Shown: positions 3,571 through 63,662 of the stretch, piece after piece
Layout: each line of letters begins with the position of its first letter
How positions within the stretch are numbered: position 1 is the stretch's first letter
Assembly (NCBI GenBank): GCA_000165345.1
Contig: CM000432.1
Coordinates: forward strand, 224,001-288,000
DNA length: 64,000 bases
Direction: 5' to 3'
Translations under genes and position numbers: made by a program
The notes under the pieces: model-generated
Databases searched by the model: none
What the model was told of the DNA's origin: nothing
Seen by the model: the letters and a program-made list of their open reading frames with translations, nothing else

Positions 3571-3782
3571 AGACATTTGTTGGACTAATATTACGAGAAA
3601 AAAGTGGGAAAAAAAGCGATGAAAAAAAAATGGGAAAAAAGAGAAGAAATATTGCATGCAAAATCTAATATTTATTTATTTTAAAATATAAAATTTAATA
3701 TGAAAATGATTTTACTACTGGAAATATACAATGATGATTATAATAATATTTCATGTTTATTTCTAAATTTTTCTAATTTGGT

Positions 3783-6700
3783 CTAATTTTGTCTATTCTT
3801 TCTATTACTATTCTTACCTTTAATATGACTTCTTCTTGATACATATTCAGGTAAAAGTGCTTTATAACCATCATTTGAGCCTACATGATGTACTTCTATA
3901 TTATTAAAGTGACTATCTTGAGAATCTGTAGTAATCGGCTCACTATTTTCCAGTTCTTCAGGTGATATTTCAGAATTTTCAATTATGTTACCAGCAACAA
4001 TTCTCTGTTTTGAAATGATTTGATGAAGAGGTTTCTTTTCACCCTCTACATGAATTAACCTTCCTGCTCTATGTACTGCTTTTCCCTTATTGCCTTGACT
4101 TCCAATTCCTGCTCTATTTCCACTTGAAGATGATCTACTTGTTAATTCGTATGTTCTAGATGCTGATCTTGTACAATGTGTTCTAATATGAGATAATCTT
4201 TCAATATAGTTACCTTTAATTGAAATATTGTAATCTTCTATATTTTTTTCATTTGAGAAAAAGTTTACGCATCTTCTTATCATTGTTTCTTTATTAAATA
4301 TATCCTTAAATCCTTTATCACCATACTCAGAAGGCCTATCTTTTGGGAGATTTAACAATACATAGCTCTTAAAAGTTCGAATATTCAACCATTCAGAATC
4401 TAATTTTCTGAAATTTCTTTCCATATTTTTACCTAATACTTTTGAAGCTTTATTTTGATCTTTTATTTTCTTAAACCTTAATGTTTCATTATTACCTACT
4501 TTATCCCACCTTGTATCTAATCTTGCCAAAATCTTTCCTGAGCCTTTACTACCATGAACTATATTGTCTTCGTTCCTACCAATTCTTCCAGATAACATTG
4601 GTATTGAAACTTTCCCCAATGCTATAGTATTCCTCTCTTCAGCTGGTAGTTCTTTTCTAATTCTAATCTTTTCCAATATTTCATTATTACCTATTTGATT
4701 ATTTAATAGCAAATCTCTCTCCTCTGTTTCTTTTTGTAACTTTAATAATGCTTGATCTGTGATTTCTCTCTTCTTTTCTTTTGTTGTTAAATGAGCAATT
4801 GAAGGAAGTACCTGATTTACTATTCCATCTACTATTGAACTAATCCTCATATTATCCTTTTCTCTCATAACCAACTTTTCATGATCTGTTAGCTCTCTAA
4901 CTCTTTTTGGTATACCTCTTGAATGTAATCCTTTATTCAACATATCCAATGCATTGTCATCCTTTGAATATGGATCTCCAAATACATTCACTCCTGTTAA
5001 ATCAAAGTATTCATTATCAGTTCTCTCATCTGCTAAATATCTTATTACTAACTCTCTAATCCAATTATACAAACCTTCTTCTGATGATCTCAATGAATTA
5101 ATCTTTTGAATCTTTCTCATTGCTTTAATAAATACCCCTATTATATGACTTGGAGTATCTATTGGACTGCATACATCCATAATCTCTTTAAGAGCAATAA
5201 AACGAATATTACTATCTAATACTGTGCTCATAATACCTCCTGATCTGATATTATTATTACCATCTCCCATTAAACTATTCATACCAGGTAAGCCCATTTC
5301 ACTTTCAAAACCTAAATCTAAATCCATATCTATTAATTTATTTGATCCATTTGTAATATCAAACTTTTCATTTCCTAATGTTGAATACGTTGATAATATT
5401 TTATTTTTTAATGCATTAGGTACCGAATTTCTAAGTAAAGTCCAAATTCTCATACATCTTGTTCTTGAATCCAATTTTAATGGATTTCCTATTGGGGTAT
5501 CCATATAGTACTCAGATATCATTTCCTCTAATCTTGCTCTTTCAATATTACAATTAAACTTGCCTGTTTCATCTTCCTTACATATATTCTCTGCAGCATC
5601 TTTACAAAATTGTGAAGCATTCTTACTAAGTATCTTAATTTTATTTCTCTTATCCAATTCTTCTAAAGCATCACCGCACTGATCTTCAACTTCATCAACA
5701 GTCTTACCTCCTTTGTAAATTTTATGACTAACTGTTGGAGGAATACCTGTAATTCTGTAACTTCCTAACTCTTTTAAATCAATATCCATCTGTGTATATA
5801 TCTGATTCCATTGCCATTTTCTCATTGATTCATTTACACATCCTGAATATGAAAAATCCAAAGACAATACTTTATCAGGCTCTCTTTGTAATGAAATCAA
5901 AGTATCTAAAGCATCTTCACAAAAATTCTGTATATATCCTCTCTCACCTTGTCCTTGAGTATTAAAAGATATAAAAGGAGGATTAGTCTTTAACTTCTTT
6001 AAAGTTTCAGTACATAATAAAACAAACTCCTGTTCATTATTTGCTCCTGACCAAATTTCTCTAGGAGGTGGACTTCCTATCAAACCAATTATTCTTGGAT
6101 TTCCTGATTTAATATCTTTAATAGATTGTAAATAAATAGCTCCCCAAGTTGCTTCTATACTTACTGTTGTATCTTTATCAAAAAGTCCTGAAGTCATTAA
6201 AAATCCTTGCGGAGAAATCCCTTGTAAATGTCTTTGTATACTCATAAAAGTCTCTTTATCTACCTCTCTTAATAATAATTCTAAGTAATGCCAATCTCCT
6301 TTTCTTTGACCCCATTTGATTGCTTTAGATAAAGTTTCTCTATCACCTGGATTTTTAAGGTTCATTACGCTTTCCATCCACTTAAATAATGGATATCCTT
6401 CATCTGATAATTCCTTAAGTGTACTTAGAAGTTCCTCTAGTATTTTTCTTCCTATTCCTTCAGAATCCCCTTCATATCCAAGTTCATCTTCTTTTAATTC
6501 ATCATTAGTCTTTTCCTGAAGATCAGAGAATACATAAAATTTAGATTCTTCACAGAATCTCTCTATTGTGTATTCTCTATCATTCAAATTATGACTTGAA
6601 ATGATTGCTAATCTTAACTTTAATAGCTCATCTAACACTTTAATACAATGTTCTGTGAAGACTAATTCTGCTACTGGGCTAGGCCATAATGTATATAAAG

Positions 6701-9700
6701 TTTGATCATACTCCGGAAGCTTAACAAAGCGAATATAATTCATGTTAATATCTCTTTTTAACTGTTGTTTAAGTTGATCCCATTGTCTTTTAGCTTCTTT
6801 CTTCTCAGTAGTCTTAAATTCTTCCTCCTCTAAATCACTCTCTTTTTCATCAATATCGCTTGCACTATATTCATCCGTATCTGCATTTGAAAGATCAAAA
6901 CCTGACTGCTGAGGACTCATTGTTTTATTCTTTCTCTCATTCTTTGGTAAATCATCTCCAATCACATCAAGTTCAACCTTCCTTGTCTTTTTACGCATTT
7001 GATGAATTCCTACCAACAATTTGTGTTCCATACTTAAAACATTTCTTTGAGGAAGTAATTTTGGTTCCAACTTAAAAAGCTTTATAGATGATGTAGTACA
7101 AAACTCTTCCAATATTACTTTTGCCATATCCAAGCTCTTGCATTTCTCAAAGTTTGTTCCATCTATATATAAATTTCGATATATTCCACTTTCCCATACT
7201 CTCCATATATGCGAAAAGCAGTCATCCCTATAAAGATCTGGCCTTTCTCTGCCAATAAATACCAGTGATGAAGGAGATTTGATTGGAGGCCAAGGAATAC
7301 CTTGAATAGATCCAGATTTATTAGAACCTGGAGTAATTGGAAGATGAGAGGAAATTGAGTATGGATTTTTTGCCAATGGATCTAGCCAATTCTTAGATTC
7401 ATTATACATTGTAATGTACTCTACTGCCGTATAATACCTTTTGGAAGCTCTTTTACAGAAATCTGTAATTAAGTTATTCAATTCACCTTTAATTGTTTCC
7501 TCATTCTTTTCTTGTTCTTCACTGAAATTAGTGGAAATTAATACTCTTGGAGGAACAGAAATATATCCATGGTAAATTGTACTTATACATTGATACTCAA
7601 AATCCAATTTTTCTACAGCTGGATAGAAGTCATTTGGTAACAATGGAGAAACCTCTGTAATCCTATTTTCCAGACCTGAAATATAATCAATGATAACTTG
7701 TTCTTGAATAATTGACCATTTTGAAGATACCTTATTTTCATCCATTAAAGGCTCCCCATTGTTTGAAGCAGATATTACATCGAATAAGTGTTTATATTCT
7801 TGAAAGTATCTATTTGTTGCATCTCTACAGAAAATCTTTATTGTTTCTTTTGCTTTATCTTGAAAACCATCTAATTCTGCTCCATGTTGTAAGTTAATTT
7901 TAACTTTAGATTGAGACAAAAGTGAACCAATCAATTCAAAACAAACAAAGAGGAACTTTTCACTAGAGTATTGAGGTGTATTCCACTCCCTTGGCTGATC
8001 GATTGGAAGTTCAGAAATGGTTGGTAATTTGTGATTACTTTCATCTATTGTCATTTGTAATATAATTGCTTTCCATTGTTGAAAAGCCACCAATGATTCT
8101 CTTGGGCTAATTTTATAAATTGATTCATATTTTAAAGTGTTTTGGTTTGTCTCTCCGACAGTTAGTCCAATAGAAACCCCTTGTGTTAATATTTCACTTA
8201 CGCTTCTTGTAGTTCCAAACAAACGTCTTGAATTCTTTTGTTGTTCCATTAATGGTTTATTTAAGCTTTGATTGCTCTTGAATACGTGATATCCTGTTGG
8301 AGAAGTTTTGAATGAAACCTGATAAACTTCATCATCAAGTGGTTGTGCCAAGAATTGTTGCTTTTCAGGGCGTACCTGTTCATAATTTTCCATTTCTTCT
8401 TCTTCCTGCTTTTTCTTTTCAAAATCATAAACTTTTGGATTATAAATATGAGCAGAATCTTCACCTTTTCTTTCAGCATTTTCTCTATAATCACTAGATT
8501 CTTGTTCATCCAAAGAAATTTCTCCCTGGAAAAAGGCAACTGAAGCAAAGTGACAAAAAGATTCAATATTCTTCTTTACTAGATTAATATCAAATTTACC
8601 AGACTTTGAATGACCATCAATATAAAGATCTTTAGATACCTTGTTAACATATAAATCCCAAATACATCCAGCACAATTATTTCTCATCTCATATACATCT
8701 CTTCCAAAAGTAAATTTGAAAGGCATGAAAGGCCTTCCAGAAGGTAATCCATATATTCTGTAGTTTTGTCTTTCAATAATTTTATTCCATTGTCTATTAC
8801 CTATGAAAATATCCACAGAATCTGTACAAAACTGAAAAATGACAAATTGGTGACTAATAAAGTCCATATCAATATTATCAGGTCCGACGGTCTTGTCTGT
8901 ATCTAGACTTTTAAATTTGAGAAATTCCTGGAACTTCTCCTCATTTATTTCCTGCGAATGTTTAACAATAGGTAATTTCTTTGATTCATTCAAAGCGGAC
9001 TCTGAAATATCTAATAAATCTTGCTTAAGAAGTGAAAATAATGTTTGATTACATAACCTCAACAATTTTTTTGGATTATATGTAAAGTCACTCAATTCAA
9101 TTGGGAAACTCTGACTCAATATAGTAAGTCTTCTATTACCTATGGATTGATCCCGGCTTTCCTGTTGTAATAAAGATCTCCAAAAATTCCAAGCTCCTTT
9201 TGATACGTGAACAGAATCTGGAGGTAAATTATAAAGCGAAACTTTTGATAACTTCTCATAATCAATTCCAGTCCTTACTATTTCATCTCCTCCTTTAACT
9301 CTATGAACTTTTAATGGAACATCCTCCAATGTAGTTTCTAAGAATTCCAACTGAGATTCTAAGTCCTTTCCAAGCTTCGGGAAGCTCACCTTGTTCTTTT
9401 CAATACGTTTCGATCGAATTCTCTCCTCCATCAAAGGATGATGCTGGGGCTTGCCATAATCTGGATCTTCCTGTAATAATTTCAAATCCTCTTTATCCCC
9501 AAGTCGTTCAATCTCTTCTTTTTCTCTCTCACTAATTTGTTTTTCCTTTGACTCCAAGATAGCCTCTCTTGCTTTCTCTGAAACCTTTGTAAAGTAGTCC
9601 TTAACTACATTAAGTCTACCTTTTATTGGATAGCAATACTCTGCAGCTGAAATACAAAATGTCTTTCTTGAATAATTTTTCTCAAGCTCATCCTCATAAC

Positions 9701-10058: not shown

Positions 10059-10410
10059 TTTCTCTTGTCACTCAAAAATCCTGGTGTGTGTACAATTTCT
10101 CATGCAAATAATTTCCTCTCAACTGCATGTGCATGCAGCCACGTAAGCAATTATCTGCCCTTCTTAATTGATTTCTCTATATTAAATTTATTTCTTCTTT
10201 TATATTAATAGCTTCCAATCTTAAAATTAAAAAAAATCCTCACCTTCAAAAAACATTAATTGAATACCTATCCCTTATTCAATTAACTTCTTTGTCTTTA
10301 GATTTTTTTACTTTCCAAATTTTTGTTTTACTATTGTTTTTTTTTTAAATTAATTTCTCCTTCGTACTCTTCCTAATAGTTAATCTCCAAATTGTCCATG
10401 CAAAAATGTC

Positions 10411-10430
10411 TGCCCGCCAAAAGGCGCCTC
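10411..10430. promoter_or_regulatory. Paired E2F-like element TGCCCGCCAAAAGGCGCCTC upstream of the 2091-aa gene; TGCATGCA-type boxes at 10100-10140
   Basis: CCCGCCAAAA reads as TTTTGGCGGG on the other strand. ACTGCATGTGCATGCAGCC lies 60-80 bp upstream of the ATG. Confidence 0.4.
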
Positions 10431-10709
10431 GTGTGGGGAATGTTTGGTGCATAAGACCTGGGTAAATCTTGAATTAAGAGAGCCTGAGTAATGAGAGGAA
10501 GTAATATTTTAATCAAGAAAAAAAAGGAGTAAAAGAAATTTATAATCTATGATAAGCTTAAGATATTACTGAAAATAATTGTAACAAGAAAGAATTTTGC
10601 AGATTTAATTGAATAAATAAAAACTAAAATTATTACTATATTATATATTAGGATTATGTGTAGGATTTATCAGACAGGCTAAGCCAATGATAGAAAGAGG
10701 GAAAACTTA

Positions 10710-15016: not shown

Positions 15017-15118
15017 CCGCCCGCCCCCCCTATTTCTTTCATATCTCCATGCTAATTTATTGCTTTAAATCTGTATTTAAAATGGCCATGGCGCGGGCGC
15101 CACAGAAGTGGCGCCGAG
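15017..15118. promoter_or_regulatory. GC-rich bidirectional promoter island (CCGCCCGCCCCCCC ... GGCCATGGCGCGGGCGCCACAGAAGTGGCGCCGAG) between divergent genes starting at 14450 (-) and 15477 (+)
   Basis: This is the most GC-rich 100 bp in the window. It contains GGCGCC twice and sits centrally in a 1-kb divergent spacer. Confidence 0.4.
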
Positions 15119-18551: not shown

Positions 18552-18652
18552 AAGTAGATGATTTTAATTAATTAGTAATAATTTAATTATAATATACATT
18601 ATTAAAAGATTGATAAATATATACTTGAAATAGTTCCTTTGTAAGATTGATG

Positions 18653-20955: not shown

Positions 20956-21038
20956 TTGGCGCCAAACCCATTTTTTTTTAATTTGAAAGAAATCGTACCG
21001 ATACAGTCAAAAAATTGTCGGGGTAGTTGGCGCCATTT
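20956..21038. promoter_or_regulatory. Two E2F-like boxes (TTTGGCGCCAAA at 20956-20967, TTGGCGCCATTT at 21027-21038) 280-360 bp upstream of ADA2
   Basis: Seen directly. The first is a palindromic double E2F site. Confidence 0.45.
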
Positions 21039-21111: not shown

Positions 21112-21149
<38 letters not shown>

Positions 21150-22146: not shown

Positions 22147-22220
22147 TTTGCGCGCCAAAATTCTACGATTTTAATATTAATTAAATATTATTTGGGTACC
22201 CGTGTAATAGGCGCCAAATG
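22147..22220. promoter_or_regulatory. Divergent SF3b5/UTP13 promoter: E2F-like TTTGCGCGCCAAAA (22147-22160), GGTACCCGTG (22195-22204), GGCGCCAAATG (22209-22220)
   Basis: Seen directly. The element arrangement mirrors the one upstream of the ESS2-like gene (2196-2233). Confidence 0.45.
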
Positions 22221-25826: not shown

Positions 25827-25946
25827 AATAAGTACTTTAATTTCTTCTTATTTCTTTCTTTATTTTTTTTCATCACTTTTTATTAGATATACTTTGAGTT
25901 GTATTATTTTATATAAGTATTTATTTATTAAATAAGCTTAAAACTT

Positions 25947-28022
25947 TTATAATGCTTGATAATTGTTTGCTGTATTATTATTACCATAATTACTATTCAT
26001 ATTAAATCCACTCAAAACTGAAATGATAAATCTCACTCCCTAAATAAATTAACATTGAATAAAGTGAATATAATTGTAAAAAAAAAGTTAGTTATTTGTT
26101 TTGTTAACTTACCTTTAAAACATATAATAATACAATACATGTAATAAAACCAATCAAAAACCAGACAATGTAACCTGCATTATATAAAGAATTTTCATTT
26201 AACATTTCAACAGAAATATTCTCAAGACTTGAAGAATCATCAGAAATCTTAATTTTTTCAATATTAGCATTATTAAATTCCATACTTTCTTTCTTATTAA
26301 TCTTTTTCTGTTGAGCAAATTTACTCTTTTTAAAGAATGTTGAAACCTAAGAAAAAAAAAGTGAAATAGTTAATTTTTGTATGAAATTTTGTTTTCTCTA
26401 ATTAATATATCAGGTAAACTTACATGACAAATTTCTTCTCCATAACATTCTTTTAATCTATTTGTTATAACTTGTCCATTATAAAGCAATCTAATATAAT
26501 AAGGTAGAGATTCTTGAACTAATTCTGCCTCATTGTCATCAAAATAGTCATAATTTTGTCTTTTTTCTATACTTAGTATTGGATTATTATATATCTCAAT
26601 GATAAATGTTGAAGCATATGGTGGCCAATGTTCATCCCAAATCTCTAAAGAAGCCAAAGTTGGAATAACAGTTGTATCATGTCCTGAAAATAAGATAAAT
26701 TTAGGTACTTTAATATGAACACCATCATTTAAAGAATAATAATGTTCATATTTATTACATAATGGATTAAGTAAATATTCAAAATTGGTTAAAGAATCTT
26801 TACCCTTGAAATTTGTACGTTGATTAATAATAGAACATAATCTCTTAATATTAGAAAATTCATCACTTTTGTTTTCATTAAATAATATTACATCCATTAT
26901 ATAATCTCTGACATCAAATAATAATCTGCTCATTTCAGATTTAGATAAAATTGAATCATTCCAAGTATATATTACAGATAATTCTTTTTCTATTGCAGAA
27001 ATAGTTCTATTTAGTAGATTATTTTCTATAAAAGCTTTTGGAAGCTTATTATGATTTCTTGTACAAATAGTTGTCATAATACAGTCCATAATATCACCAG
27101 GCCATAAATCTTTTAATAATGGAGTTCTAATCTTTTCTTCTAATTCTTGATATAAACTTTGATGTTTATCTACAATATCAAAATAAGACTTAGAACTTAG
27201 TGCAGCTTGAAGATGATCTGTAATATTTTCTACATTAGAATTTGCAAACAAATAATCAGACTGAATATCCATTGTATGTAGTGGAAATTTTTGAAATACT
27301 TTAAAAGTTTCCTCTTTGCCAACAAATTCTTCCAATAAACTGGTTAATAATGCAGCAGCAGAAACTGTAGTTCTTTGCATATCTGAAGATCTAATATATA
27401 TTTCATCTCTATAATTATGACCAATTCTTAATCCATTTCTTGTTACAAGATTTTCACCTTGTTTAAAATAAGCCTCAGCAAGTAGTTTTCCATTAATTCG
27501 ATGTTGTTCGTATCCTTGTAAGATTAGTTGACCCATTTTACAAGTTCCATTCAAGTTATTTTCCCATTGTCTAATATCATAATGTTTTGAGAATTCTAAA
27601 GTTTGTGTTCTGTTTCTCATATCAAAAGCCGCTGCTTGAACTGTTGTTACTAATTCGTCACAATTCCAACTTTGATTTAAACCTTCCCAGCATTTATGAT
27701 ACTTGGTTGGAGTTCTTGCACCATGTCTTATAATTGATTGAACTTGAATTAACTTCATTGAATCATATAATTTTGAGTCATTAATTTTGGGGATTTTTCT
27801 GGTTTTCTCAAATACGCTTGGCTCTGCACAAAAATTATAATATTCTGGACATAATCCATTAATAATACACTCTTGATCATTTTCTATAAAAAATTTATCT
27901 TGAGTAACTTCTTTCCATCTTTTGTTACTTAAATCACTATATTCATCCCTGAATTTTCCAAATACAACAAATTGATTCAGTATTAATTCAATTATAAAAA
28001 GTAATAATACAATTCTTTTCAT
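25947..28022 (-). CDS. Histidine acid phosphatase, membrane-anchored, 3 exons (paralog 1 of a tandem pair)
   Basis: Exons on the minus strand are 28022..26424, 26346..26113 and 26039..25947. The introns are 26423..26347 (77 nt, GTAAGT...TTCTTAG) and 26112..26040 (73 nt, GTAAGT...contains ACTAAC...TTTAG). The catalytic signature IIRHGARTP is present. The signal peptide is MKRIVLLLFIIELILNQFVVFG. Exon 2 encodes a transmembrane helix YIVWFLIGFITCIVLLYVL. Confidence 0.75.
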
Positions 28023-28056
28023 TTCTTATTAGTTTCTGAGTTCCAGCTTTGCATAC

Positions 28057-28093
<37 letters not shown>

Positions 28094-28535
28094 AATATAT
28101 ATCTATATATAAATAAATAAATATATATATATATTAATATAATGTATATATTTATTTATATATTTTATTTAATATATACTTCCAATATTTATCTTCAATA
28201 ACTTTTTTTTTTACTTATTTTAACAAATATTCATATTATATTTCACGTGATGTTAATTTGAAGAAAAAAAAAATTATTAAAAAGTTATATTAACTTCTAC
28301 CTTTTTCTCTCTATTGCTTTTTTAATTTCTTTTTTGTTTAAATTTAGATTATTATTCACATTTTCACGATTTTGTAATTAATTCATAATTTTTTGTATAT
28401 TAAGTTAACATATTTTCATTAAATATTTATAATTTTTGTTTCTATAAATTTCAGATTTTTCCCTCTTTTTCTCATTTTTTTCCATATTAATTATTTATCC
28501 AAAAAAAACTTTCTGTTATTTCCTCTTTTTTTTTC

Positions 28536-28590
28536 TTGCATGCGCATATAATTCTTGAATGCATGCATGCATTTTCATGTGGACGAATTA
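28536..28590. promoter_or_regulatory. Cluster CTTGCATGCGCAT...GAATGCATGCATGCATTTTCATGTGGACGAA: three GCATGC boxes plus an ATGTGGAC motif, upstream of acid phosphatase paralog 1
   Basis: Seen directly. The same GCATGC plus ATGTGGAC combination recurs at 59228-59362 and 63567-63662. Confidence 0.4.
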
Positions 28591-29188
28591 TTAATAGGCG
28601 GAAAAAAAAGTCAGTAGATTGTAGAGAGAAGAAAACAAAAAAAAATAAATAACTGATAATGAACTAATATAAAGTATAATTCGGTTTTTACATTAATTTG
28701 GACAAAATTGGTAAATTAATATACTAAACAGACCTCTAGTTTATCTAGAAAACTAATACTGTATGCTTAGAATATTCATTTTTAAAACACATATGATTAA
28801 ACATAATATTATTATTAAAAGAATAATTTTTACAAATGAAAATTCAATCAAATTTAAATAGATTGAATTTTAACACTTTGATCTAGAATTAATTGAATCT
28901 ACAAATTTCAAAATGTTCAATAATATTTAATTCACGCATATTCAATTAATTTCAGAATTTTCGAGATAACATTGTAAGAACAACTGACAATTTTAAAAAT
29001 AAGTTACATACAATTCCTTTGCAATTCTTTGACATGCAATTTAAATTAAAAAAAAAAGATGAGAATTAGAAACCCTTTTTTTTTGTAGTACTTTCACATC
29101 CCCATTAATTTAAAATTAAAACAATAATTCCCTGTTTGATATTTTTGACAAGTTTTAAATATCTTTCAAAGTTTTTATTTAGACAAGA

Positions 29189-31159
29189 TTAATTTGATTT
29201 CGATCTCATAGCCTAATTTATTGTGTTAATAGTTTTCAATTATAAGAAAAAAAGGAATACTTTATATATAACCTACCTTAATTGAATACAATATTATTAG
29301 GGAAGTTAAAGCCCCAAGTAAGAAAGACAAAGAGTAACTTAGGAAAGGAGTATTGATACGATAAACTCCATTGAAATTACCCTCAAGATTCTTTTGGTTT
29401 TTATTAGAAGAACCTTTAACAGAATCTGTCTCATTTAAAGATTTTTCATATTTATTTGTTGATTCTAATATTTCTTTTTTACCAATTTTTTCAAATTTGG
29501 CAAATTTACTTGTTTCGAAAAATTTGTAAGCCTAAAATTAAAATATTAAGTTAATTTAAATGACTTTCCATTAAATTAAAGAAATAAAAAACTTACATGA
29601 CAAATTTCGTTTCCTTCACATCCTTTTAATTTATCTGTTATAACCAATCCATTATATAATAATCTAACATAGTAAGGAAGATTCTTTTGAACTGATTCAA
29701 GTTTTAAAAGACTATTTGCCTCCCCTTTGTATTCCTGTTTTTCATAAGGATCATAATAAATCTCAAAATTAATAGTAGAAGCATAAGGTGGTAAGTGCTC
29801 ATCCCAAGCATGTAACGAAGATAATAATGGAATAACTGTCAAATCATGCCCTGAGAAAAGAATAAATTTAGGTGCTTTAATTTCCTTCTTGGAAGAATTA
29901 TGATACTCATATTTATTACATAAAGGATTGAGCAAATATTCAAAATTCATTAAAAGATCTTGGCTCATAAAAGCTTTGTTTAGAGCAGAATTTGAACATA
30001 ATTCCTTTATGTTTGATAATCCGTCATTTTTATTTTCATAGAATAATATAGCATCAAGTATAAAATCTCTAATTTCATACATAAATCTACTAATATCTGA
30101 TTTGGCTATAATTGAATCATTCCATGTAAACACAGAAGATACTTCTTTTTCTATTGTTGCCATGGTTCTTTCAAGTAGATTATTTTTATAAAAAGCTTCT
30201 GGAAGCTTATTATCATCCCCAGAACATATTGTCATAGATATACAATCAAGTAATTCAAATGGCCAAGATCTATTAAGATCATTTAATTTAGCATCTTTTT
30301 CCAATTCCATATATAAATGTTTACGATCTTCCAACAATTCTTGAAAATTTTTGGAGGTGAAAACATATTTTAATACTCGAGAATTGTCTACGAGGTTCTT
30401 ATTTGCAAACAAATATTCAGAATGAAAATCCATTGTATAAATGGGTAAATTTCTAAATCTTTGGAAAGTTTCTTCTTTACCAAAAATATTTTCTAATAAA
30501 CTTGTAATTAATGCAGCAGCAGAAACTATGGTTCTTTGTGTATCGGATGATCTAATATACATTTGATTTTTAAAATCACTAATTTCCAATCCACTCTTTG
30601 TTACCAAATGTTCTCCTTTAAAATAAGCTTTAGCAAGTATTTTCCCATTAATTCTATGTTGTTCATATCCTTGTGAAATGAGCTGACCCATCTTACAAGT
30701 ATTAGTTAAATTATTTTGCCATTGTTTTGTTTCATAATGTTTTGAGAATTTCAATGTTCGAGTTTTACTTTGTTTTTCAAAAGCTGAAGCGGAAATTAAA
30801 GATTTTAAATCACTACAATCCCAGTTTTGTTTATACCCTTCCCAACATTTAAATGATTTTACTGGAGTTCTTGCTCCATGCCTAGAAACTACTTGTAATT
30901 GAATTAATTCCAATCTATTAAATAGCTCTTCATCTCTTAATCTCGGGATTTTTTTAATTTCTTCAAGGTTGCTAGTATCTGCACAAAGACTAAATTCGGC
31001 AGGATTCACAATTTTTCCCAAATATCCATTTTCATCTACAACAAGATCACTCTCTAATGCATCTGAATTTGATGAAATTGTTTGATTCTTTCGCTCTTGT
31101 TTAATTACACAACCAACAAGGCTGAAAAATGACAGAAGTACAACAACTCTCATTTCCAC
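29189..31159 (-). CDS. Histidine acid phosphatase, membrane-anchored (paralog 2 of tandem pair)
   Basis: Exon 1 is 31159..29597 (VVSRHGARTP signature, signal peptide MEMRVVVLLSFFSLVGC). The first intron 29596..29532 sits at the identical position after ...EICH. Exon 2 is 29531..29277 and encodes a TM helix LSYSLSFLLGALTSLIILY. A putative short last exon 29212..29189 follows the intron 29276..29213, but this last exon is uncertain. The gene has the same orientation and the same exon structure as the gene at 25947-28022. Confidence 0.7.
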
Positions 31160-31790
31160 AGGAATCTTAATGTAACTGGATTCAATAAAACAAAAAAAAG
31201 ATTATTCGAAGTTATTTTAATAACTAAATTCTTGTCCTATTTTTCTCTAAGATTAGTTCGTATAGAATTTCAAATTTCTTTTCTTTCCAAAAAATTCCTT
31301 CAATTGATCTGACAAAAAAGGTGAGTAGAAAGAAAAATTAAACAAAGAAATTCTCCTTAAATGGTGTGTTTTTGTTAATATTAATCTGCTATTTCGAAAT
31401 CAAAACAACTAAATGTAATTAAAAACTAAACATGTTTTAAAATTCTTCAATCGTCTCCGTCTTGTCTTTAGCATTCATTTATTTTCAAATAAAAAATAAT
31501 TGAGCACAATTTTTGTATTTATTAAGTGGTTAAATTTTACATTGAACCACTTTTAATTTAACAAGTAATAAATTTACTGAATTTTAATAATTTTATCCAC
31601 ATTAAAATTTTAATTACGTGTTTGCATGCACATTTTTTTAAAAAATTATTAAATATACAAAATATTATTTTTCTTTTAAGAAGATTTTAATTAAAGAAAA
31701 AAACGAAAATTAATTATTAAAAAAATCGACGTTCAATTAAGTTTGAAAATGAATAATTATAGATAAAAACCAAAATTTGGATGTTTTGAA

Positions 31791-43343: not shown

Positions 43344-43367
43344 GGCGCCAAAGCGCTTTGGCGCCAA
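43344..43367. promoter_or_regulatory. Perfect 24-bp palindrome TGGCGCCAAAGCGCTTTGGCGCCA (two inverted E2F-like boxes) followed by TGCATGCA at 43392-43399
   Basis: Seen directly in the divergent spacer between the membrane-protein gene (ATG 42892, minus strand) and the kinase gene (ATG 43836). The 70-aa ORF 43208..43420 covering it is probably spurious. Confidence 0.5.
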
Positions 43368-43835
43368 AACGAGCGGTATCTAAAAAAGAAAATGCATGCA
43401 ATATTAAAGAAAAAAAATAATGTATGGCAAAATTTGAGGAAACAAAAATTAAATAGAATTAATAAGTATTAAAGAAGTAATAGTTGTTTTAGATATTTAA
43501 TTATTATTTATTATTAAATCAAAATTTTTATAATTGAAGAGGAAATAAGTATAAAATATTTGACTAATAATGAATAAGATTTGAAAGAAAAGGGAAATAT
43601 AGATCAAGTTTCTAATAAATCTGGCCTTATTTATTTCAGATTTTTACATTCTTTGTTATAAAATAATTCTTAATTAGTATTACATATTACTATTGCAAAA
43701 TTAATTAATTAATAATTAATTAAAGTTATAAATATTAGTAGAAACGACTTCTGGAATATATTAAAAGTAAGGGAGTGGTTTTCTTTTTTCTTTTTTTTTT
43801 GAAATAACTAAATTATTATTGGAATATTAGAAGTT

Positions 43836-45069: not shown

Positions 45070-45470
45070 GATACTAATACTACTGTTACTACAACAACAA
45101 CTACCACTACAACAACAACTACAACAACAACTACTACTACCACTACAGCAACTACTTCTACCACTACTACCACTGTTACCATTGCTATCACTGCTACCGC
45201 TGCTACTGCTACCACTGCTACTGCTACCACTGCTACTGCTACCATTGCTACTGCTACCATTGCTACTGCTACCATTGCTACTGCTACCATTGCTACTGCT
45301 ACCATTGCTACTGCTACCATTGCTACTGCTACCACTGCTACTGCTACCACTGCTGCCACTATCATATTTGCCTCTCGCTCTTCCCATTCTCCTCCTCATC
45401 TTCCTCCTTTTCATCCTCCTTTTCATCCTCCCCCTCCCCTCTTTTGCTCCCCTTTCCTCTCTTCCAGGAT
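45070..45470. repeat. Triplet-periodic minisatellite: (ACA/ACT/ACC)n, then 15-bp unit GCTACTGCTACCATT x about 8 with CAC variants flanking, then a CT-rich tract
   Basis: Seen directly. It would translate as poly-Thr / (ATATI)n on the plus strand, or (SSSNG)n / (VAVAM)n on the minus strand. It is preceded by an unusually GC-balanced 270 bp (44790-45060). Confidence 0.85.
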
Positions 45471-46168
45471 TGTTAATAACTAAAATCATTTCAAGCATTT
45501 TAATTTGGCTATTATTAATTATAATTGATCCAATATTTCGATATGGTATTTAACTATTTATTTTGAAAAGAAGAAAAAATATTAACTTTTCAATCTGTTG
45601 GATTCAATTTCTCATTACTTAATATATTTCTAATTATATTAATAATATTAACAATTTTAGGGTCAGAAATTTATACCATAAATTGAAATTATTTTTGCAT
45701 GTACTAATAAATTATTACGCTTATTATTTACAATGTCAAAAAAAAAAAGCGAAGTAGCGCCAAACCTGTTTTAATAGTTATTTTTTGACACGTAATAAAA
45801 AATTATTAAAACAATAATCGATTAAAATAGTATTTGACTTACAAAGTTAGGCAGCGAACAAGAAAAGCTATAATTCAGACATTTGAATATTAAAGTTTAG
45901 TTTTCTTCATATTCTCTTTCTTTTTAATAATTGTTTGGATTAATCGATCAACAATAAAAGTTGAAATGAATTGATAAAGGTTTATAAGATTTTTATTGAA
46001 TAAAGGAGGAATATTTGAATTTTATCAACTTTGAGGGAAGACAAATTTTCTTTATATATTTTGCCTTTAGATTTAAACAATTTTAAATTAATAAAGCTGA
46101 TTATTTGAATAAAGTGGAAGAAAGTTTTCTTTCTTTTATTTAATTAATTTAGTGGAATATAACTTAAA

Positions 46169-54476
<8,308 letters not shown>

Positions 54477-55250
54477 TTCTAAAACTAATTATTAATTTAC
54501 TTATTCAACATTTTTTTGAAAATTATAAATTAACATATCATTAATAATTATAGATATTTGTAGAAATCTTATATTAAGAAATTAAGCTTATTCTCTATAT
54601 TTTACTATTCATTTACTTACTTATGTTTACTAAATTTGATTTTCCTAATAAAAGATGATTAGAAACTTACTTAACTAAAATATTCTTAAAAAAAAAAGAA
54701 TCAAAGAAATAATCTAATAATAATCAAAAATGACTTGTAACATGTAATATTTATTTTTATTATTATTATTATTTGCACAATTAAAATTAATTATTTTTGA
54801 GACAGCCCGCCAATTTAATATAATTTAATATATTATTTAATTAATATTATTAAGTACCTTGAATAGTGTCTGGAAGAAGAGAAGTAAAGGAAAAGGAGAA
54901 ATTTTTTTTTTTACATTAAAAATAGGTAAAAAGGATCATATCAGTAAAAAACTTCCTTGAAATTAAACAGATATACAGATATATATATATATATATATAT
55001 ATAGAAGAATCTAAATACAAATAGTTTATTGTAACATATAATTTACAATCGACTATTTTGAAGAAAATTAGAAAGAAAAGGAATAAGAAGAAAAGAAAAA
55101 CAAGGTCTTGAATTTTCTTTTTAGTAATCTCAAGTCAAGGAAGAACTTAGTAAATTACTAATAACTGATACAATCCCAAGTAAAATAAGAAGAGAAGTCT
55201 ATTTAAAAAAAAAAAAAAAAGAATATTATTTTAAAAAATTTGTAATTCTT

Positions 55251-56315: not shown

Positions 56316-56699
56316 ATTAAGGCAGGATAGAGACTCATGTCTGAGCCCGCCATTTATCAAGTTTTAATATAATGATCAATTTTATATTTATTATTATAGT
56401 TATTTTCGATACGAAAAATTATCACAAATTCATTAATTTACTATAATTTTAGAAAAAAATCGACTATTTGTTTAATTAATTAATTACATATACTTATTAC
56501 CTCTAGATTCTACAATTTTCTATATTATTATTCATAATGTTAATAATAAGCATGCTCGCTTTTGCGTAAACATTTGTTTACATGTCAGCTCTACACCTAA
56601 TTATCATTCGCTCTCTTTTATTCTTTTCTTCTTTTTTTATTCTTCTTTTCTCTATCGATTTATACTTATACTTGTACTATAGTTTTTTATCATATTAAA

Positions 56700-58742: not shown

Positions 58743-59227
58743 TTATTTAATTTTTTTAAAAATAATTCCTCTTTTAATTTATAACGAAAAAAAAAAAAAT
58801 TAGAAGTAAATGTTAATTCTAATAAAAAACCTCTTTGACCCTTAATTTTAATTCAATGCTTTATACTTAATTAATTTATTATCATTAATTTCACTATTGA
58901 CATATAATTTTTTTCAAAGTATTAGAACAAAATATTTATTTTATTTTATTTTATTTTTTTCAATTGATCAACTCTTTCTGTAATTAATTAATCAAAATAT
59001 TTTTTTTTTTAATAAAATAGTTGTAAAAAAAAGATATTTATATTTATTACACTGATCCCTTCTATATTAACGCATTTACTTCACATATTAAATATATTTC
59101 TTTGTCTTATTATTATTCTAATTTTTTTATTCCTATCTATTTAAAATTAATTAAAAAAAAAAATCTTTAGTGGTCAAAAAATGACGTGGCAATATTAAAT
59201 ATTTTTTTAAAAATTAATTTAAATAAT

Positions 59228-59362
59228 TTTATGTGGACGAAGATTCTCCAATAAAATATTTTTTTTAATTCAAGATGGATTATATGGACATATTAATTAA
59301 CAAGTTGCAATAGTTCCTATACCGGTGTTTGACAATTTACATGCAGATTTGCATGCACACCA
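59228..59362. promoter_or_regulatory. Upstream module TTATGTGGACGAA ... ACATGCAGATTTGCATGCACACC in the divergent spacer between the 6-exon gene and the MYND gene
   Basis: YATGTGGAC plus GCATGC boxes, the same pairing as at 28536-28590. Confidence 0.4.
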
Positions 59363-59698
59363 CAACAAAAAAATTGACCTAAAAAAATATCTAAAATATA
59401 AAAGTTAAAGAGGAAAAAGGAAAGCTTTCCAATTTTTTCTTCAAGAAGAAGGAATTAATTTGAACTAATTTTGGTAAGTAAAAATTTTTTTTAAAAATTA
59501 ATATTACTTTATTTTTTAATTCGCAAATGTATATAATCATGTGCAATTTATATCAATTAAAAAAAAAAAAATTAAACTTAAATGGCGGTAACACGAGTTT
59601 CAATGATTTAATTAAAATTTATTATTAGAATTTTTTTTTTTACTGAAATAATATCATCGTTATAGTTTATATAATAAGAAGTTAATTAAACAAATAAG

Positions 59699-60403
59699 AT
59701 GGATTCTTTAGATGAAGTGATTCACGAGAAATTTACATATGTTTTTATTCCATACCATGACTCTGACAAAATAGAAGTTAGAGAATTTTCTGGTAAGGAA
59801 GTCAACTTCAAGAATTTAATGCGCTCACATTTTTCCAGTAAATTAAGGAGTAGTGAAGTTTCTAAACTCCAAGAAACATTTAACAAGGAATCAAAAGCTT
59901 CAGACCAACTTGTTGAACAAGCAATCTTAAATAGTCAAAATTATGAAATTATTAGTCTTGTATTACCAAACAAAAGTAATAATTTTACAGCAACAAATGC
60001 ATATATTGATTCAATTGGAAGAATTAAAGAAATGCCTATTAATCCAAGAGCATCCAAAATTTGTTCAACTGATGTAAGAGGGGATTGCTTTATTTCATCT
60101 TCATTTGACGATGAATATGTATTTAAGAGAGTCAGTTTTGGTGAGGAAGAATATAATAAGCTTTGCAAAAATCCTCCATCTGCAGAAAATAGGTGGGATG
60201 CTTCAAAGATTTCAACAATGTTAAATAATCCAACAGATTTACTAAAAAGTAAAGAAGAAGATAAGATTTTAAATAGATGTGAGAGTTGTAGAAAAGAATC
60301 TGAAAAGACTTTACTAATTTGTAGTAGGTGTAAGAAAGTAGCATACTGCAATGTTGATTGCCAAAGAAAAGATTGGAGTTATCACAAACAATTTTGCAAA
60401 TAA
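59699..60403 (+). CDS. MYND-type zinc finger protein
   Basis: The C-terminal CESCRKESEKTLLICSRCKKVAYCNVDCQRKDWSYHKQFC is a canonical MYND finger (C-x2-C...C-x2-C...C-x3-C...H-x3-C). A GTAAGT at 59476 suggests a possible 5' UTR intron. Confidence 0.7.
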   Translation: MDSLDEVIHEKFTYVFIPYHDSDKIEVREFSGKEVNFKNLMRSHFSSKLRSSEVSKLQETFNKESKASDQLVEQAILNSQNYEIISLVLPNKSNNFTATNAYIDSIGRIKEMPINPRASKICSTDVRGDCFISSSFDDEYVFKRVSFGEEEYNKLCKNPPSAENRWDASKISTMLNNPTDLLKSKEEDKILNRCESCRKESEKTLLICSRCKKVAYCNVDCQRKDWSYHKQFCK

Positions 60404-60543
60404 TCTAATTAAAAAATGAAAAAGTAAGAAAAATCCATAAATTAATTTATAAAAATAGTTATTAATAAATACTAGAAAAAAAAACTAAATTAAATATAGA
60501 ACAATATACTTGTAATTATTATTATTACAAATTAATAATAAAT

Positions 60544-62583
60544 CTAAAGCTCATCACGAGCAGTATGTATCCAAATAAAGTCTAAAATAGAATTAACTTC
60601 TCTTTCTCCATCAAAATCTATTGGATTTGCCTTTTCTCTCTTCTTGTACAATTTTATTGTTGGAAATCTAAAGATTTTTCGACCAATTTGATCGTCTGGA
60701 ATAAAATTTGCTGACATGTCAATCTTTGCAACAAGAACATTAGTCTTTGATGTTACAATGTTAGCAACTTCATTATATATTGGGTCAAAGGTCTTACAAT
60801 GTCCGCACCATGGAGTATAAAATAACACTAATACATCTCTAGTAGAATCATAAACTATTTCTTTGAATGTGTTACCAACCAGAATAAAAACTGGTCCATT
60901 TTGTTTTGAAGGAGTTACTTGGGAATGATAAGTAATGTTCACCATTCCTGATCTTACTTCATCTATAAAATCACTAATAATGTTTGGTGAAAAATTAATT
61001 GAAGTATGGTTATTTAAAATAATCCAGTTTGATTCATTTGGTTTTCCTATTGATAAAATCTCTGCATTATTATTACTACTAGTAATACCACCAATACCTG
61101 TATTGCTTTCTAAATTATTTAAGTAAATCTTTGGTAAATCTAAATGATATTTCTTTGGAGGTGATACATTAAGGTCATTAATCATAATTATTGATGGAAG
61201 TAAGTCATCATCAATATGTAGAAAGTCCATAAATCTTCGATTAATTGGACCTTCATTTCCAGACATTACAAATAATGGTCTTTCTTCAAGATATTTATTA
61301 GATTTATCAGCTTTTTCGTTTCTAATAGCAATCACTCTCTGTAAAATATTATAAAATTGATGAATAATTGAAGATTCTTTATTAAGTTCTTCAATATAAT
61401 TTTCACTATTTCCACTAAAAATTAATAATAATATTGTGCCACCATTATCAATCAAATTACCTATAGTGTCTTTATTTAAAAATATAATATTTTCTTGTTT
61501 ATAATAATCAATAGTATTTAAAATTAATGCTTCTTCTTTAAAAGGGCCATTAATTGTTTTTACATGTTTTCCAGAATTAAATAAAAGTATTTTGGATTTT
61601 TTTTCATGATTTTCTATTATATCCGTAATATTAAATTGAAATTCATTTTTATCAAGAATATCTTTGTTAATTAATAAACTCTTTTTAAGGTCATTATAAT
61701 TAGCTTCACCAAATATAACATCATCATATATTTTACAAATATCAACAACTAATAAGTATTCTGTATTATTATATTTTTTTTGAGATTCAAATTCATGTAA
61801 ATATATTACTGAATATCCACTAATTTCCAAAAAGAATTTAATATTATCTATAGTAGAAAGTTGAATTAATTGTGATTTTGGGTTATTTTCTAATCTAGAA
61901 ATTTGTTGTATAATCCAAGAAATAACTTTCTTATGATATATATTCCCATAAAAATCAATAATTTTTAATTTTTGATTTTCTTCTTTTTTAACTAATTTAA
62001 TAGTTGGATAATCTAAAACATTAAGCTTCATTGATAAATTTGGGAATTCTGGAACATTTACTAAACCTATTAATAACTTTTTTGAATAGAAAAATCGATT
62101 AGGATGTTCTATAGAAAAATCATTAGAATGCTCAAAATACTTTACCATTTCATGTATTTGATTAATAGCTCTTTTGCTCATTCCACACCATGGTGCTGTA
62201 AATAGAATGATTAGATAGTCATTATTAGCTAATAAGTTTTCAAAAGATTCATCTGTTTGTATGGTAACAATTTCAAATATTTTATTAGTAATATTTTCAT
62301 TTACATGACTATTATCATCGATAACTTCTTCAAGGTCAATTCCTTTAGCTGATGTAAAATGCGATTCAATAAACGGAATAAGATCTTCTGTATTATCTTT
62401 ATTTGATTTATTACTACTTAGATTTATAAACTTTGTATTTGAATTTAATGTATCATTTAGTTCAGAAGTATTATCTGAAACTACATGTTTAGTTTCAAAT
62501 AAAAGCAATAAAAAAAGTAGTGAAGTTATATATATTAGTATAAATGAAGTGGTTGAACGATTTATATTATTTAATCCCCACAT
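60544..62583 (-). CDS. ER-resident protein disulfide isomerase family member (two thioredoxin-like active-site domains, C-terminal RDEL)
   Basis: N-terminal signal/anchor. The first site FTAPWCGMSKRA is CxxS-type. The second site FYTPWCGHCKTF is canonical CGHC. The C-terminus ...IHTARDEL is a KDEL-type ER retrieval signal. Confidence 0.8.
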   Translation of the reverse strand: MWGLNNINRSTTSFILIYITSLLFLLLLFETKHVVSDNTSELNDTLNSNTKFINLSSNKSNKDNTEDLIPFIESHFTSAKGIDLEEVIDDNSHVNENITNKIFEIVTIQTDESFENLLANNDYLIILFTAPWCGMSKRAINQIHEMVKYFEHSNDFSIEHPNRFFYSKKLLIGLVNVPEFPNLSMKLNVLDYPTIKLVKKEENQKLKIIDFYGNIYHKKVISWIIQQISRLENNPKSQLIQLSTIDNIKFFLEISGYSVIYLHEFESQKKYNNTEYLLVVDICKIYDDVIFGEANYNDLKKSLLINKDILDKNEFQFNITDIIENHEKKSKILLFNSGKHVKTINGPFKEEALILNTIDYYKQENIIFLNKDTIGNLIDNGGTILLLIFSGNSENYIEELNKESSIIHQFYNILQRVIAIRNEKADKSNKYLEERPLFVMSGNEGPINRRFMDFLHIDDDLLPSIIMINDLNVSPPKKYHLDLPKIYLNNLESNTGIGGITSSNNNAEILSIGKPNESNWIILNNHTSINFSPNIISDFIDEVRSGMVNITYHSQVTPSKQNGPVFILVGNTFKEIVYDSTRDVLVLFYTPWCGHCKTFDPIYNEVANIVTSKTNVLVAKIDMSANFIPDDQIGRKIFRFPTIKLYKKREKANPIDFDGEREVNSILDFIWIHTARDEL

Positions 62584-62816
62584 AATTTTTCAACAGGAAT
62601 TGCCATAAGCTTTGAATTGATAAATTAGAATTGGCATAAATTCAATGCTGAGATTTAAGAATAAATAAGTGCAATTCACTCAGATCAATTACACTTTTCT
62701 TCTCTTATCTATAAATATACATATATAATTTATACATTCACTTTTTTTTTAGTAGTGAAATAATTTAATTTTTTTTTATCCTTATTTTGGTCAAATTACA
62801 TAATTATTAAATGAGT

Positions 62817-62838
62817 TTTGGCGGTACTTGCGCCGCCA
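62817..62838. promoter_or_regulatory. E2F-like element TTTTGGCGGTACTTGCGCCGCC in the divergent PDI/Bud13 promoter
   Basis: TTTTGGCGG matches TTTSSCGS. The inverted partner is GCGCCGCC. Confidence 0.4.
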
Positions 62839-62945
62839 CATGCTGATTTTGAATATATGTAAAATTTAATAAGGATAAAAAAAATGCGGAGATTGGGTCA
62901 TTACACTAAATATTCATATTCCAAAAGTTGTTTCCTTAGATAAGA

Positions 62946-63479
62946 ATGAAAGGAAGTGTAGTATATAGAGATGAAGAAGGAAGAATTATTGATAAGGAGT
63001 TATGGTACGAGAAGAAAATAAATGAAAAAAGGAAATCGAAGAAAAGAAGTATTAAAAACGAAAATAAGTTCACAAAAGATCCAGAATTCGTTAAATATAG
63101 TGGTGGTATTATTCAATATGAGGAAGCCAAGAAAAAATATGCGGGTGAGAACAATCCGGTAATTCAGGATGAAATAATAGATGGAGGGCGTTATTACTTG
63201 AGTAAAAGTTATGATGATGAATTAAAGAAAAAAGATATTTGGGATGACCCGATTAAACTAATAAATGCGCAGGATAACAATATAAATAATTCTGGTTTGA
63301 GGAGTGATTTTGTTGATTTGGAAGCTAAAAGGCTTAAGTGCAAATTTATTACTCCTCAAAATAGATTTTCCATTGAAAGCGGTTATCGTTGGGATGGAGT
63401 GATTAGAGGTAATGGTTTTGAAGAAAATTATCTTATTAAAAAAAATGAAAAAAATAATACTATTTATAATATCGACTGA
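62946..63479 (+). CDS. BUD13: Bud13/CWC26 (RES complex) family splicing factor, short form
   Basis: The C-terminal RFSIESGYRWDGVIRGNGFEENYL matches the Bud13 signature (RF.I.PGYRWDGVDRSNGFE). The N-terminus is Lys-rich. Confidence 0.6.
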   Translation: MKGSVVYRDEEGRIIDKELWYEKKINEKRKSKKRSIKNENKFTKDPEFVKYSGGIIQYEEAKKKYAGENNPVIQDEIIDGGRYYLSKSYDDELKKKDIWDDPIKLINAQDNNINNSGLRSDFVDLEAKRLKCKFITPQNRFSIESGYRWDGVIRGNGFEENYLIKKNEKNNTIYNID

Positions 63480-63566
63480 TTTCATTTAAGTTAAAAACTA
63501 TTTTATTTTATTTTATTTTTTAATCATTAATCCATTATAATTAACATAAATTTATAATTTTTTCTT

Positions 63567-63662
63567 GTCCACATGAAAAAATAAATATGAATTCCGGACA
63601 CGTAATTTAATTACTTGCATTTGCATGTTGCATGCAAATTTTGGAAAAAATGGTCCACATAA
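63567..63662. promoter_or_regulatory. 3'-flank module: GTCCACATGAAAAAAT ... CTTGCATTTGCATGTTGCATGCAAATTTT ... GGTCCACATAAAAAAT (two ATGTGGAC motifs in reverse orientation bracketing GCATGC boxes)
   Basis: Seen directly downstream of the Bud13-like gene. It probably serves a gene beyond the window end. Confidence 0.35.

Follow-up and report, generated by a model that had tools for sequence, protein, structure and literature searches.

What is a short palindromic word built on the core GCATGC doing between the genes of Cryptosporidium parvum chromosome 4? We examined a 64-kb stretch of this chromosome (hereafter the window, to which coordinates refer unless stated otherwise), which contains genes cgd4_820 to cgd4_1090. 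An initial annotation, made from the sequence alone, had described GCATGC boxes as recurring in intergenic regions and frequently multimerised, and had proposed that they are ApiAP2-type sites forming a two-letter promoter code with E2F-like boxes. Our results make it very probable that the boxes, in their full form TGCATGCA, are the known C. parvum cis-element AP2_1, a palindromic site recognised by the AP2 domains of cgd2_3490, cgd1_3520 and AP2-F (cgd4_1110). The finding is the correct recognition of a published element: earlier papers had described the motif, the proteins that bind it, its enrichment in spacers and the pairing with E2F words. The added value lies in the footprints of individual sites, in AP2_1 and E2F words as alternatives, and in a conserved partner word, GTCCACAT.

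Enrichment and conservation of the boxes

We divided the window with two masks, the first based on open reading frames (ORFs; 46.9 kb coding and 17.1 kb non-coding) and the refined one on the gene calls of public assemblies (50.1 kb genic and 13.9 kb spacer). GCATGC occurred 10 times in the window; shuffles that preserved dinucleotides gave 2.67 ± 1.44, and none of the 100 reached 10. TGCATGCA occurred 8 times, compared with 0.42 ± 0.61. All 10 GCATGC cores lay outside ORFs and annotated genes, where 0.38–0.59 were expected from order 0–2 Markov models of the non-coding fraction, and coding sequence contained none (1.6–2.4 expected). Over-representation in the spacers was ~20-fold for GCATGC and ~100-fold for TGCATGCA. 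The spacer frequency of the core exceeded both the expectation from composition and the frequency in coding sequence; the claims of intergenic recurrence and of essentially no coding copies were borne out. One-mismatch variants of GCATGC were not enriched across the window (82 versus 83 expected), so the signal was specific to the exact core.

A ranking of 6-, 7- and 8-mers in the non-coding fraction left two families once A-runs and TA repeats were set aside. The first was CATGCA/GCATGCA/TGCATGCA(A), with p values from 5e-19 to 1e-14; the second was the E2F-like TTGGCGCCAA family, GGCGCC/GGCGCCA/GGCGCCAA/TGGCGCCA, with p values from 8e-13 to 7e-19. Among the words that remained, the AP2_1 word ranked first or second at k = 6, 7 and 8, alongside the E2F word. 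The same spacer-specific motif enrichment was seen in the C. meleagridis, C. ubiquitum and C. canis loci. The consensus [T/C]GCATGC[A/G], bound by the AP2 domain of cgd2_3490 (PMC3734150), fitted 9 of the 10 cores (eight copies of TGCATGCA and one of TGCATGCG), the only failure being a core at 56550 in a AGCATGCT context. Frequent multimerisation was likewise upheld: within ±40 bp of the seven core loci there were 9 extra TGCAT/ATGCA 5-mers, where the remaining spacer sequence predicted 0.93 (p = 6e-7), and 6 of the 9 were clearly separate from a core.

The shorter words GCATG and CATGC were scarcer in genes (6 + 6, versus about 14–17 per strand under Markov orders 0–2). At order 3 most of this deficit vanished (12 copies versus ~18), so we do not claim coding depletion of GCATG; codon usage may account for it, without selection against stray sites.

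The boxes were compared with orthologous loci of C. meleagridis, C. ubiquitum, C. canis and C. andersoni, in which gene order was kept. Retention was tested without alignment, against an empirical null, because the five-species MAFFT alignment A2 (PAP/HisPhosA spacer, PAP being poly(A) polymerase) misplaced the C. ubiquitum motif by ~40 columns and because column-wise conservation undercounted three loci where full site and half-site had swapped within the cluster. By this test, C. ubiquitum had a GCATGCA core in the matching spacer at 7 of the 7 TGCATGCA loci. Spacers of C. parvum and C. ubiquitum shared 58% identity, 7% of aligned 8-mer windows were unchanged, and 13% of GC-containing C. parvum spacer 8-mers occurred anywhere in the orthologous C. 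ubiquitum spacer; retention of all seven loci against this null has a probability of about 7e-7. C. canis carried the full GCATGC at 5 of 7 loci and half-sites at the other two, and C. meleagridis retained the motif at 3 of 3 tested loci. In multi-species alignments A1, A3, A4 and A5 the motif stood at the centre of conserved blocks, and the multi-copy layout itself was conserved, with full and half-sites at times trading places. We concluded that the TGCATGCA sites are under purifying selection. As a side observation, the C. canis loci (L007, L010, L012) had a G+C content of 38–51%, versus 23–31% in the other species' orthologous loci, and the conserved promoter blocks were unchanged in C. 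canis despite this higher G+C.

Expression classes and E2F-like boxes

Every spacer bearing a TGCATGCA locus contained a gene start (7/7); convergent spacers comprised just 886 of 13,898 spacer bases. Gene identifiers were set by gene order and by functional anchors from published tables (~12 points), and stage labels came from the differential-expression table in the supplement of Hasan 2024 (PMC11078545). Among the genes listed there, cgd4_850, cgd4_910, cgd4_980 and cgd4_1100 are female-specific, and cgd4_870, cgd4_940, cgd4_990 and cgd4_1030 are asexual-specific. TGCATGCA was found in the 5' spacer of 4/4 listed female-specific genes versus 5 of ~20 others (hypergeometric p = 0.012), and the three triple clusters of the window were exactly those preceding cgd4_850, cgd4_910 and cgd4_1100. 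E2F-like boxes lay in the 5' spacer of 4/4 listed asexual-specific genes. That is, the AP2_1 and E2F words track opposite expression classes. The same study found TGCATG(T/C)(G/A) enriched in 65 macrogamont promoters, and co-expression cluster 103 of Oberstaller 2013 (PMC3734150) holds cgd4_910, cgd4_1100 and the LCCL proteins CpCCp1 and CpCCp2. The initial view of the boxes as ApiAP2-type sites of an apicomplexan was supported by the C. parvum host, the consensus fit, the purifying selection, the position upstream of female-specific genes and this macrogamont match.

The proposed co-occurrence of the two words fared differently. Among 23 spacers, AP2_1 was present in 8 and E2F-like boxes in 11, and the 4 spacers with both did not exceed the 3.8 expected by chance (Fisher p = 1.0). 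The two words look like alternatives, not partners. The idea of a two-letter code was correct in that these are the dominant spacer words, one or both being present in 14 of 17 promoter-bearing spacers, but not in the co-occurrence. Moreover, the conserved footprints contained further words (GTCCACAT, CCGGACACGTAA, TGACGTGGCA, AGATACC, GTCGAGTTATTTTCTAATATTTTCATG, a G-box and CGAGAC), indicating a promoter code of more than two letters; 11 motif families have been described (PMC3734150).

The E2F-like palindromes (TTTGGCGCCAAA, CCCGCC) were located at 2199, 3541, 10413–10428, 15020–15115, 20958–21034, 22151–22215, 34902, 38828, 43344–43365 and 54806. They precede MCM7/PMM, ADA2, SF3b10/Utp13 and eIF3g, and C. 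ubiquitum kept 5 of 8 in the aligned spacers (21887–56699).

Individual sites, partner word and gene map

The initial annotation had placed the boxes correctly, and several of its double and triple counts included TGCATG, CATGCA or TGCAT half-sites. Its single box at 3653–3660 was exact. This TGCATGCA lies 489 bp before the ATG of RPL24 (cgd4_840) and 129 bp after the cgd4_850 stop, and both C. ubiquitum and C. canis keep GCATGCA at the same offset from the upstream stop (116 bp). The RPL24 upstream spacer also contains, at ~3555–3575, GTCTCGTCTCGAGACGGCGG, which includes the word (A/T/C)GAGAC(A/G), the ribosomal-protein promoter motif of Hasan 2024 (PMC11078545); CTCGAGACGGCGGG of this spacer is also present in C. 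canis.

Upstream of cgd4_850, which encodes a secreted CpLSP protein of 2091 amino acids (aa), the triple cluster at 10101–10137 had been counted as three cores (10100–10140). It consists of one TGCATGCA (10130–10137) with the half-sites CATGCA (10101) and TGCATG (10124), followed by CACGTAA at 10140, and it lies 43–80 bp before the ATG. C. ubiquitum has its block GCTTACGTGGCTGCATGCACATGCAGT without any change, and three copies are present in C. canis too. Farther from the gene, about 340–380 bp before the ATG, a composite module at 10397–10438 combines a CATGCA half-site, CCCGCC and GGCGCC E2F-like boxes and the G-box GTGGGG; both C. ubiquitum and C. canis keep this order of elements, with a full GCATGC in place of the half-site.

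The triple-core cluster at 28537–28571, located 519–548 bp before the ATG of cgd4_910 (histidine phosphatase), is formed by TGCATGCG (28537–28544) and the overlapping TGCATGCATGCA (28560–28571). Here the three cores reported for 28536–28575 were confirmed (28538, 28561 and 28565), and the string itself reads TGCATGCATGCAT, not CATGCATGCATGC. Alignment A3 showed GTCCACATGAAAATGCATGCATG upstream of cgd4_910 to be invariant in four species. Only 5 bp from the cluster, a minus-strand GTCCACAT box (ATGTGGAC on the plus strand; 28577–28584) is invariant in C. meleagridis, C. ubiquitum and C. canis in the same alignment.

At 31596–31630 we found TCCACAT (31596), TTACGTGT (31614) and TGCATGCA (31623–31630), the last 470 bp before the cgd4_920 ATG and 167 bp after the PAP stop; TTGCATGCAAACACGTAA of this region is kept in C. 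meleagridis and C. ubiquitum. The genes cgd4_910 and cgd4_920 are a tandem pair of histidine phosphatases (25943–31153), present in two copies in C. parvum, C. meleagridis and C. ubiquitum and in a single copy in C. canis and C. andersoni. Both have AP2_1 and TCCACAT elements upstream, suggesting that the promoter was duplicated together with the gene.

Both the 31619–31637 and 43392–43399 boxes of the initial annotation correspond to one full site each. The second of these sites (43393–43400) stands, together with GGCGCC E2F-like boxes at 43344 and 43360, in a module (43344–43400) in the centre of the divergent spacer between cgd4_980 and the kinase gene cgd4_990. The module, TGCATGCAT-T run-AGATACC-GGCGCC-GGCGCC-GTCGAGTTATTTTCTAATATTTTCATG, is conserved in four species (alignment A1), and the counterpart spacer of C. 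andersoni also carries TGCATGCA.

A tenth core, at 56550–56555, had been missed. This is the core whose AGCATGCT context falls outside the binding consensus, and it is the sole core in a convergent 3'-3' spacer (eIF3g/cgd4_1040). Neither C. ubiquitum nor C. canis has it in the orthologous spacer, and it is probably a chance occurrence.

The divergent cgd4_1040/cgd4_1070 spacer holds CATGCA (59340) and TGCATGCA (59350–59357), that is, one full site and one half-site where two cores had been noted (59339–59362). The two are located 348 bp before the ATG of cgd4_1070 (zf-MYND) and about 609 bp before that of cgd4_1040; full site and half-site are swapped in C. ubiquitum, and C. canis has half-sites only. 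A minus-strand GTCCACAT box in this spacer (59231–59238; ATGTGGAC on the plus strand) keeps its distance to the MYND gene ATG in C. ubiquitum and C. canis. The spacer also contains CTAGTGGTCAAAAAATGACGTGGCA (~59160–59185; A5 columns 447–473), which is invariant in three species and whose core TGACGTGG resembles a bZIP/CRE-type site.

The last cluster forms a ~95-bp module at 63567–63660, which comprises GTCCACAT (63567), CCGGACACGTAA (63594–63605), TGCAT (63616), TGCATG (63622), TGCATGCA (63629–63636) and GTCCACAT (63653); the three cores noted for 63615–63643 are one full site plus TGCATG and TGCAT. The module lies 440–535 bp before the ATG of cgd4_1100 (START-like) and 88–181 bp after the Bud13 stop, and its full site is at 472 bp and 151 bp, respectively. 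No other block of this spacer is strongly conserved in alignment A4 (C. parvum, C. ubiquitum and C. canis), in which the module has the order GTCCACAT-CCGGACACGTAA-TTTGCATTTGCATG...GCATGCA...TGGTCCACAT.

The partner word GTCCACAT was found as a full 8-mer four times in spacers and never in genes of the window. GTCCACAT/TCCACAT was confined to four spacers, which coincided with the full set of AP2_1 spacers that had no E2F box, also four in number (Fisher p = 0.008). All four boxes are kept in C. ubiquitum and C. canis, and the one upstream of cgd4_910 is also kept in C. meleagridis. A tentative reading, on which we would not insist, is that AP2_1 in E2F-less promoters is part of a composite female module, GTCCACAT - CCGGACACGTAA - (TGCAT)n - GTCCACAT, in which a GTCCACAT factor might cooperate with AP2. 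The arrangement is clearest at 63567–63660 and partial at 28537–28584, 31596–31630 and 59231–59357. Our literature search for GTCCACAT/ATGTGGAC returned only primer-type matches in unrelated papers, and this conserved word may deserve a genome-wide look.

We made three further observations on these words. GTCCACAT (ATGTGGAC) always lies within about 110 bp of an AP2_1 site, and it also occurs at position 17023 of L004, the sequence that extends past the right end of the window. The word (CCGG)ACACGTAA / CACGTAA recurs beside AP2_1 sites (63594–63605, 31614–31621, 10140–10146 and 45788–45795). Upstream of cgd4_1100, C. parvum, C. ubiquitum and C. canis show no difference in CCGGACACGTAA (alignment A4).

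The gene map on which these positions depend was anchored as follows: in the left part, cgd4_840 (ribosomal protein), cgd4_900 (WD40/rRNA processing), cgd4_910 (histidine phosphatase) and cgd4_930 (RNA binding); in the middle, cgd4_950 (WD repeat), cgd4_960 (sugar-nucleotide metabolism), cgd4_970 (DNA replication) and cgd4_990 (kinase); and in the right part, cgd4_1020 (NopRA1), cgd4_1030 (eIF3g), cgd4_1070 (MYND), cgd4_1080 (thioredoxin) and cgd4_1090 (RES complex). Eukaryotic housekeeping products among the window ORFs included MCM7, PAP, ADA2, Utp13, eIF3g and Bud13. PAP matched the protein of C. parvum Iowa II at 100% identity, and the C. hominis orthologue of the Bud13 gene bears the tag CHM_4g1090. 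Rightward beyond the window follow cgd4_1100, cgd4_1103 and then an AP2-domain gene, by gene order cgd4_1110 (AP2-F; L004 18242–20705), about 4.3–6.7 kb past the window's right end. A conserved pair of TGCATGCA and TTCCCGCC lies 637 bp after the cgd4_1110 stop (L004 17605), upstream of cgd4_1103.

Two loci in the right half of the window also drew our attention. The long ORFs at 46169–51757 and 51729–54476 are a single gene of ~2764 aa in recent annotations, linked by a short intron or a frame change near 51.7 kb; an older annotation had two genes, cgd4_1010 and cgd4_1020. Between this gene and the kinase gene, a 15-nt repeat, ACTGCTACCATTGCT, is present in 12 copies with 94% identity (45172–45354) within overlapping ORFs of both strands. 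This locus is probably cgd4_1000, for which a published transcripts-per-million (TPM) table shows nearly no expression.

Competing explanations and known systems

Binding of the word by AP2 domains is documented (PMC3734150, PMC4117751, PMC12246861), and the sites in this window are predicted to be occupied. Under the AP2_1 reading, female-expressed AP2 factors would occupy the sites in macrogamonts, and homotypic clusters would be expected to raise this occupancy. Because the site is palindromic, bound factors could activate one or more neighbouring genes whatever their orientation. E2F-like boxes would serve other promoters, those of proliferative asexual-stage genes, and the two words in the divergent spacer at 43344–43400 plausibly serve two oppositely regulated neighbours. 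Some 3'-proximal sites may start antisense transcripts, instead or in addition.

Several points weigh against this account. The literature searched yielded no chromatin immunoprecipitation (ChIP) or CUT&RUN data for Cryptosporidium. Open chromatin of sporozoites, mapped by transposase-accessibility sequencing (ATAC-seq), contains E2F motifs and no AP2 motifs (Xiao 2025, PMC11761812), a result that is compatible with stage-specific use but does not positively support it. The link to expression rests on four genes whose identifiers come from order and functional anchors, and absence from the genes listed in the PMC11078545 supplement does not prove that a gene is not female-specific. Three of the seven loci are nearer to the upstream stop (129–167 bp) than to the next ATG (about 470–490 bp), and for one of them the gene that follows encodes a ribosomal protein and is not female-specific; the target gene is therefore ambiguous for those three sites.

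These stop-proximal sites bring up the alternative that some boxes are bidirectional or antisense promoter elements, through which the same AP2 factors would drive antisense long non-coding RNA (lncRNA) transcription reaching back into the 3' end of the preceding gene, either in place of the downstream mRNA or along with it. The sites at 3653, 31623 and 63629 lie 116–167 bp past a stop, a placement kept in C. ubiquitum and C. canis, and the first of them follows the female-specific cgd4_850 and precedes the ribosomal protein gene. Furthermore, ApiAP2_1 and E2F head the list of motifs in the 100 bp before C. parvum lncRNAs, with limited co-occurrence; the majority of these transcripts are antisense, beginning at gene 3' ends, and bidirectional promoters have been proposed for them (Li 2021, PMC7840661). 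However, the site at 63629 precedes the female-specific cgd4_1100, for which an ordinary promoter role is enough, and the molecular mechanism would be the same as in the AP2_1 reading, with only the target transcript differing. We regard this alternative as rather unlikely, though worth keeping in mind. Several sites also stand at the junction of a gene's 3' end and the next promoter, as might be expected if an architectural AP2 protein bound them for chromatin tethering or as a boundary, and not for transcriptional activation, a role proposed for PfSIP2 in Plasmodium; citing PfSIP2, PMC3734150 cautions that motif presence is no proof of regulatory binding. Such a role is improbable, given that the motif follows expression class (4/4 female-specific genes), that macrogamont promoters are enriched genome-wide (PMC11078545), and that copy number peaks before female-specific genes.

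The same position shortly after stop codons, seen at three sites, and the extensive overlap of untranslated regions (UTRs) with spacers in Cryptosporidium (PMC11761812) would fit a word that acts in RNA as a GCAUG-type protein-binding UTR element and occurs in spacers since UTRs lie there. Yet the full 8-bp palindrome, and not just GCAUG, is enriched and conserved; the sites at 43393 and 59350 are in the middle of divergent spacers, about 350–600 bp from both ATGs; and recombinant AP2 domains bind the word as double-stranded DNA (PMC3734150, PMC4117751). We consider an RNA element highly improbable. For a compositional artefact, or for copies of a dispersed repeat, nothing speaks except the small sample of seven loci, whereas the shuffles never reached the observed counts, the Poisson p values against spacer Markov models were 1e-10 to 1e-14, and retention in C. 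ubiquitum was complete against the 13% null; chance of this kind is scarcely credible. A dispersed repeat or mobile-element remnant was rejected, as the ±60 bp contexts of the sites share at most 13 nt, consisting of just the motif or A/T runs. The whole window was also covered by a search with Rfam gathering thresholds, a tRNA scan and Tandem Repeats Finder; none of the three gave a hit at the sites or close to them, which ruled out an RNA gene or a tandem array.

The AP2_1 reading matters because this element is one of the few Cryptosporidium regulatory words with both a candidate factor and an expression class. Conserved and well-anchored instances, of which the triple clusters before cgd4_850, cgd4_910 and cgd4_1100 are good examples, are useful promoters on which to test how sexual-stage genes are controlled; oocyst production and transmission depend on this step.

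The motif received the name AP2_1 (BGCATGCAH) in Oberstaller 2013 (PMC3734150), which also records the observation of Bankier 2003 that AP2_1 and E2F words are over-represented in the non-coding DNA of chromosome 6. On protein-binding microarrays, the AP2 domain of cgd2_3490 and its Plasmodium orthologue bind [T/C]GCATGC[A/G] (PMC3734150), further AP2 domains, including that of cgd1_3520, bind TGCAT (Oberstaller 2014, PMC4117751), and a 2025 review tabulates AP2_1 and E2F and gives AP2-F and cgd2_3490 as female-specific AP2_1-like binders (PMC12246861). Our boxes agree with the published element (Bankier 2003; Mullapudi 2007; PMC3734150; PMC4117751; PMC11078545) in organism, word, spacer bias, palindromic core, one to several copies, and association with late or female genes. 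Beyond it go the conservation of each site (C. meleagridis, C. ubiquitum, C. canis and, for one site, C. andersoni), the exact local architecture and the local link of triple clusters to female-specific genes.

The reverse complement of the partner word GTCCACAT, ATGTGGAC(A/G)A, fits or nearly fits A[T/A]G[T/A]GGA.A, an unassigned motif that Oberstaller 2013 (PMC3734150) described in front of genes for Class II oocyst wall proteins. Both keep company with AP2_1-like motifs before late genes; the cross-species conservation and the tight spacing with AP2_1 and CCGGACACGTAA were not found described in the literature searched. The E2F/DP boxes ([A/T][C/G]GCGC[G/C][A/T], TTTGGCGGGAAA), the most abundant upstream motif of C. 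parvum (PMC3734150, PMC12246861, PMC11761812), are the other dominant spacer word of the window and resemble AP2_1 in being palindromic and conserved, but they belong to another factor family and another gene class and show no preferential pairing with it.

Outside Cryptosporidium, the site of Plasmodium PF14_0633 (PF3D7_1466400) and of P. berghei AP2-Sp, TGCATGCA, has an identical core and an orthologous AP2 domain (PMC3734150, with De Silva 2008 and Yuda 2010 therein; PMC4117751), and the TRP-2 element of Toxoplasma ribosomal protein promoters, [T/C]GCATGC[G/A], has the same core. The regulons differ: sporozoite genes in Plasmodium, ribosomal protein genes in Toxoplasma, and mainly macrogamont genes in Cryptosporidium, with one Toxoplasma-like case in the window, the site that precedes RPL24.

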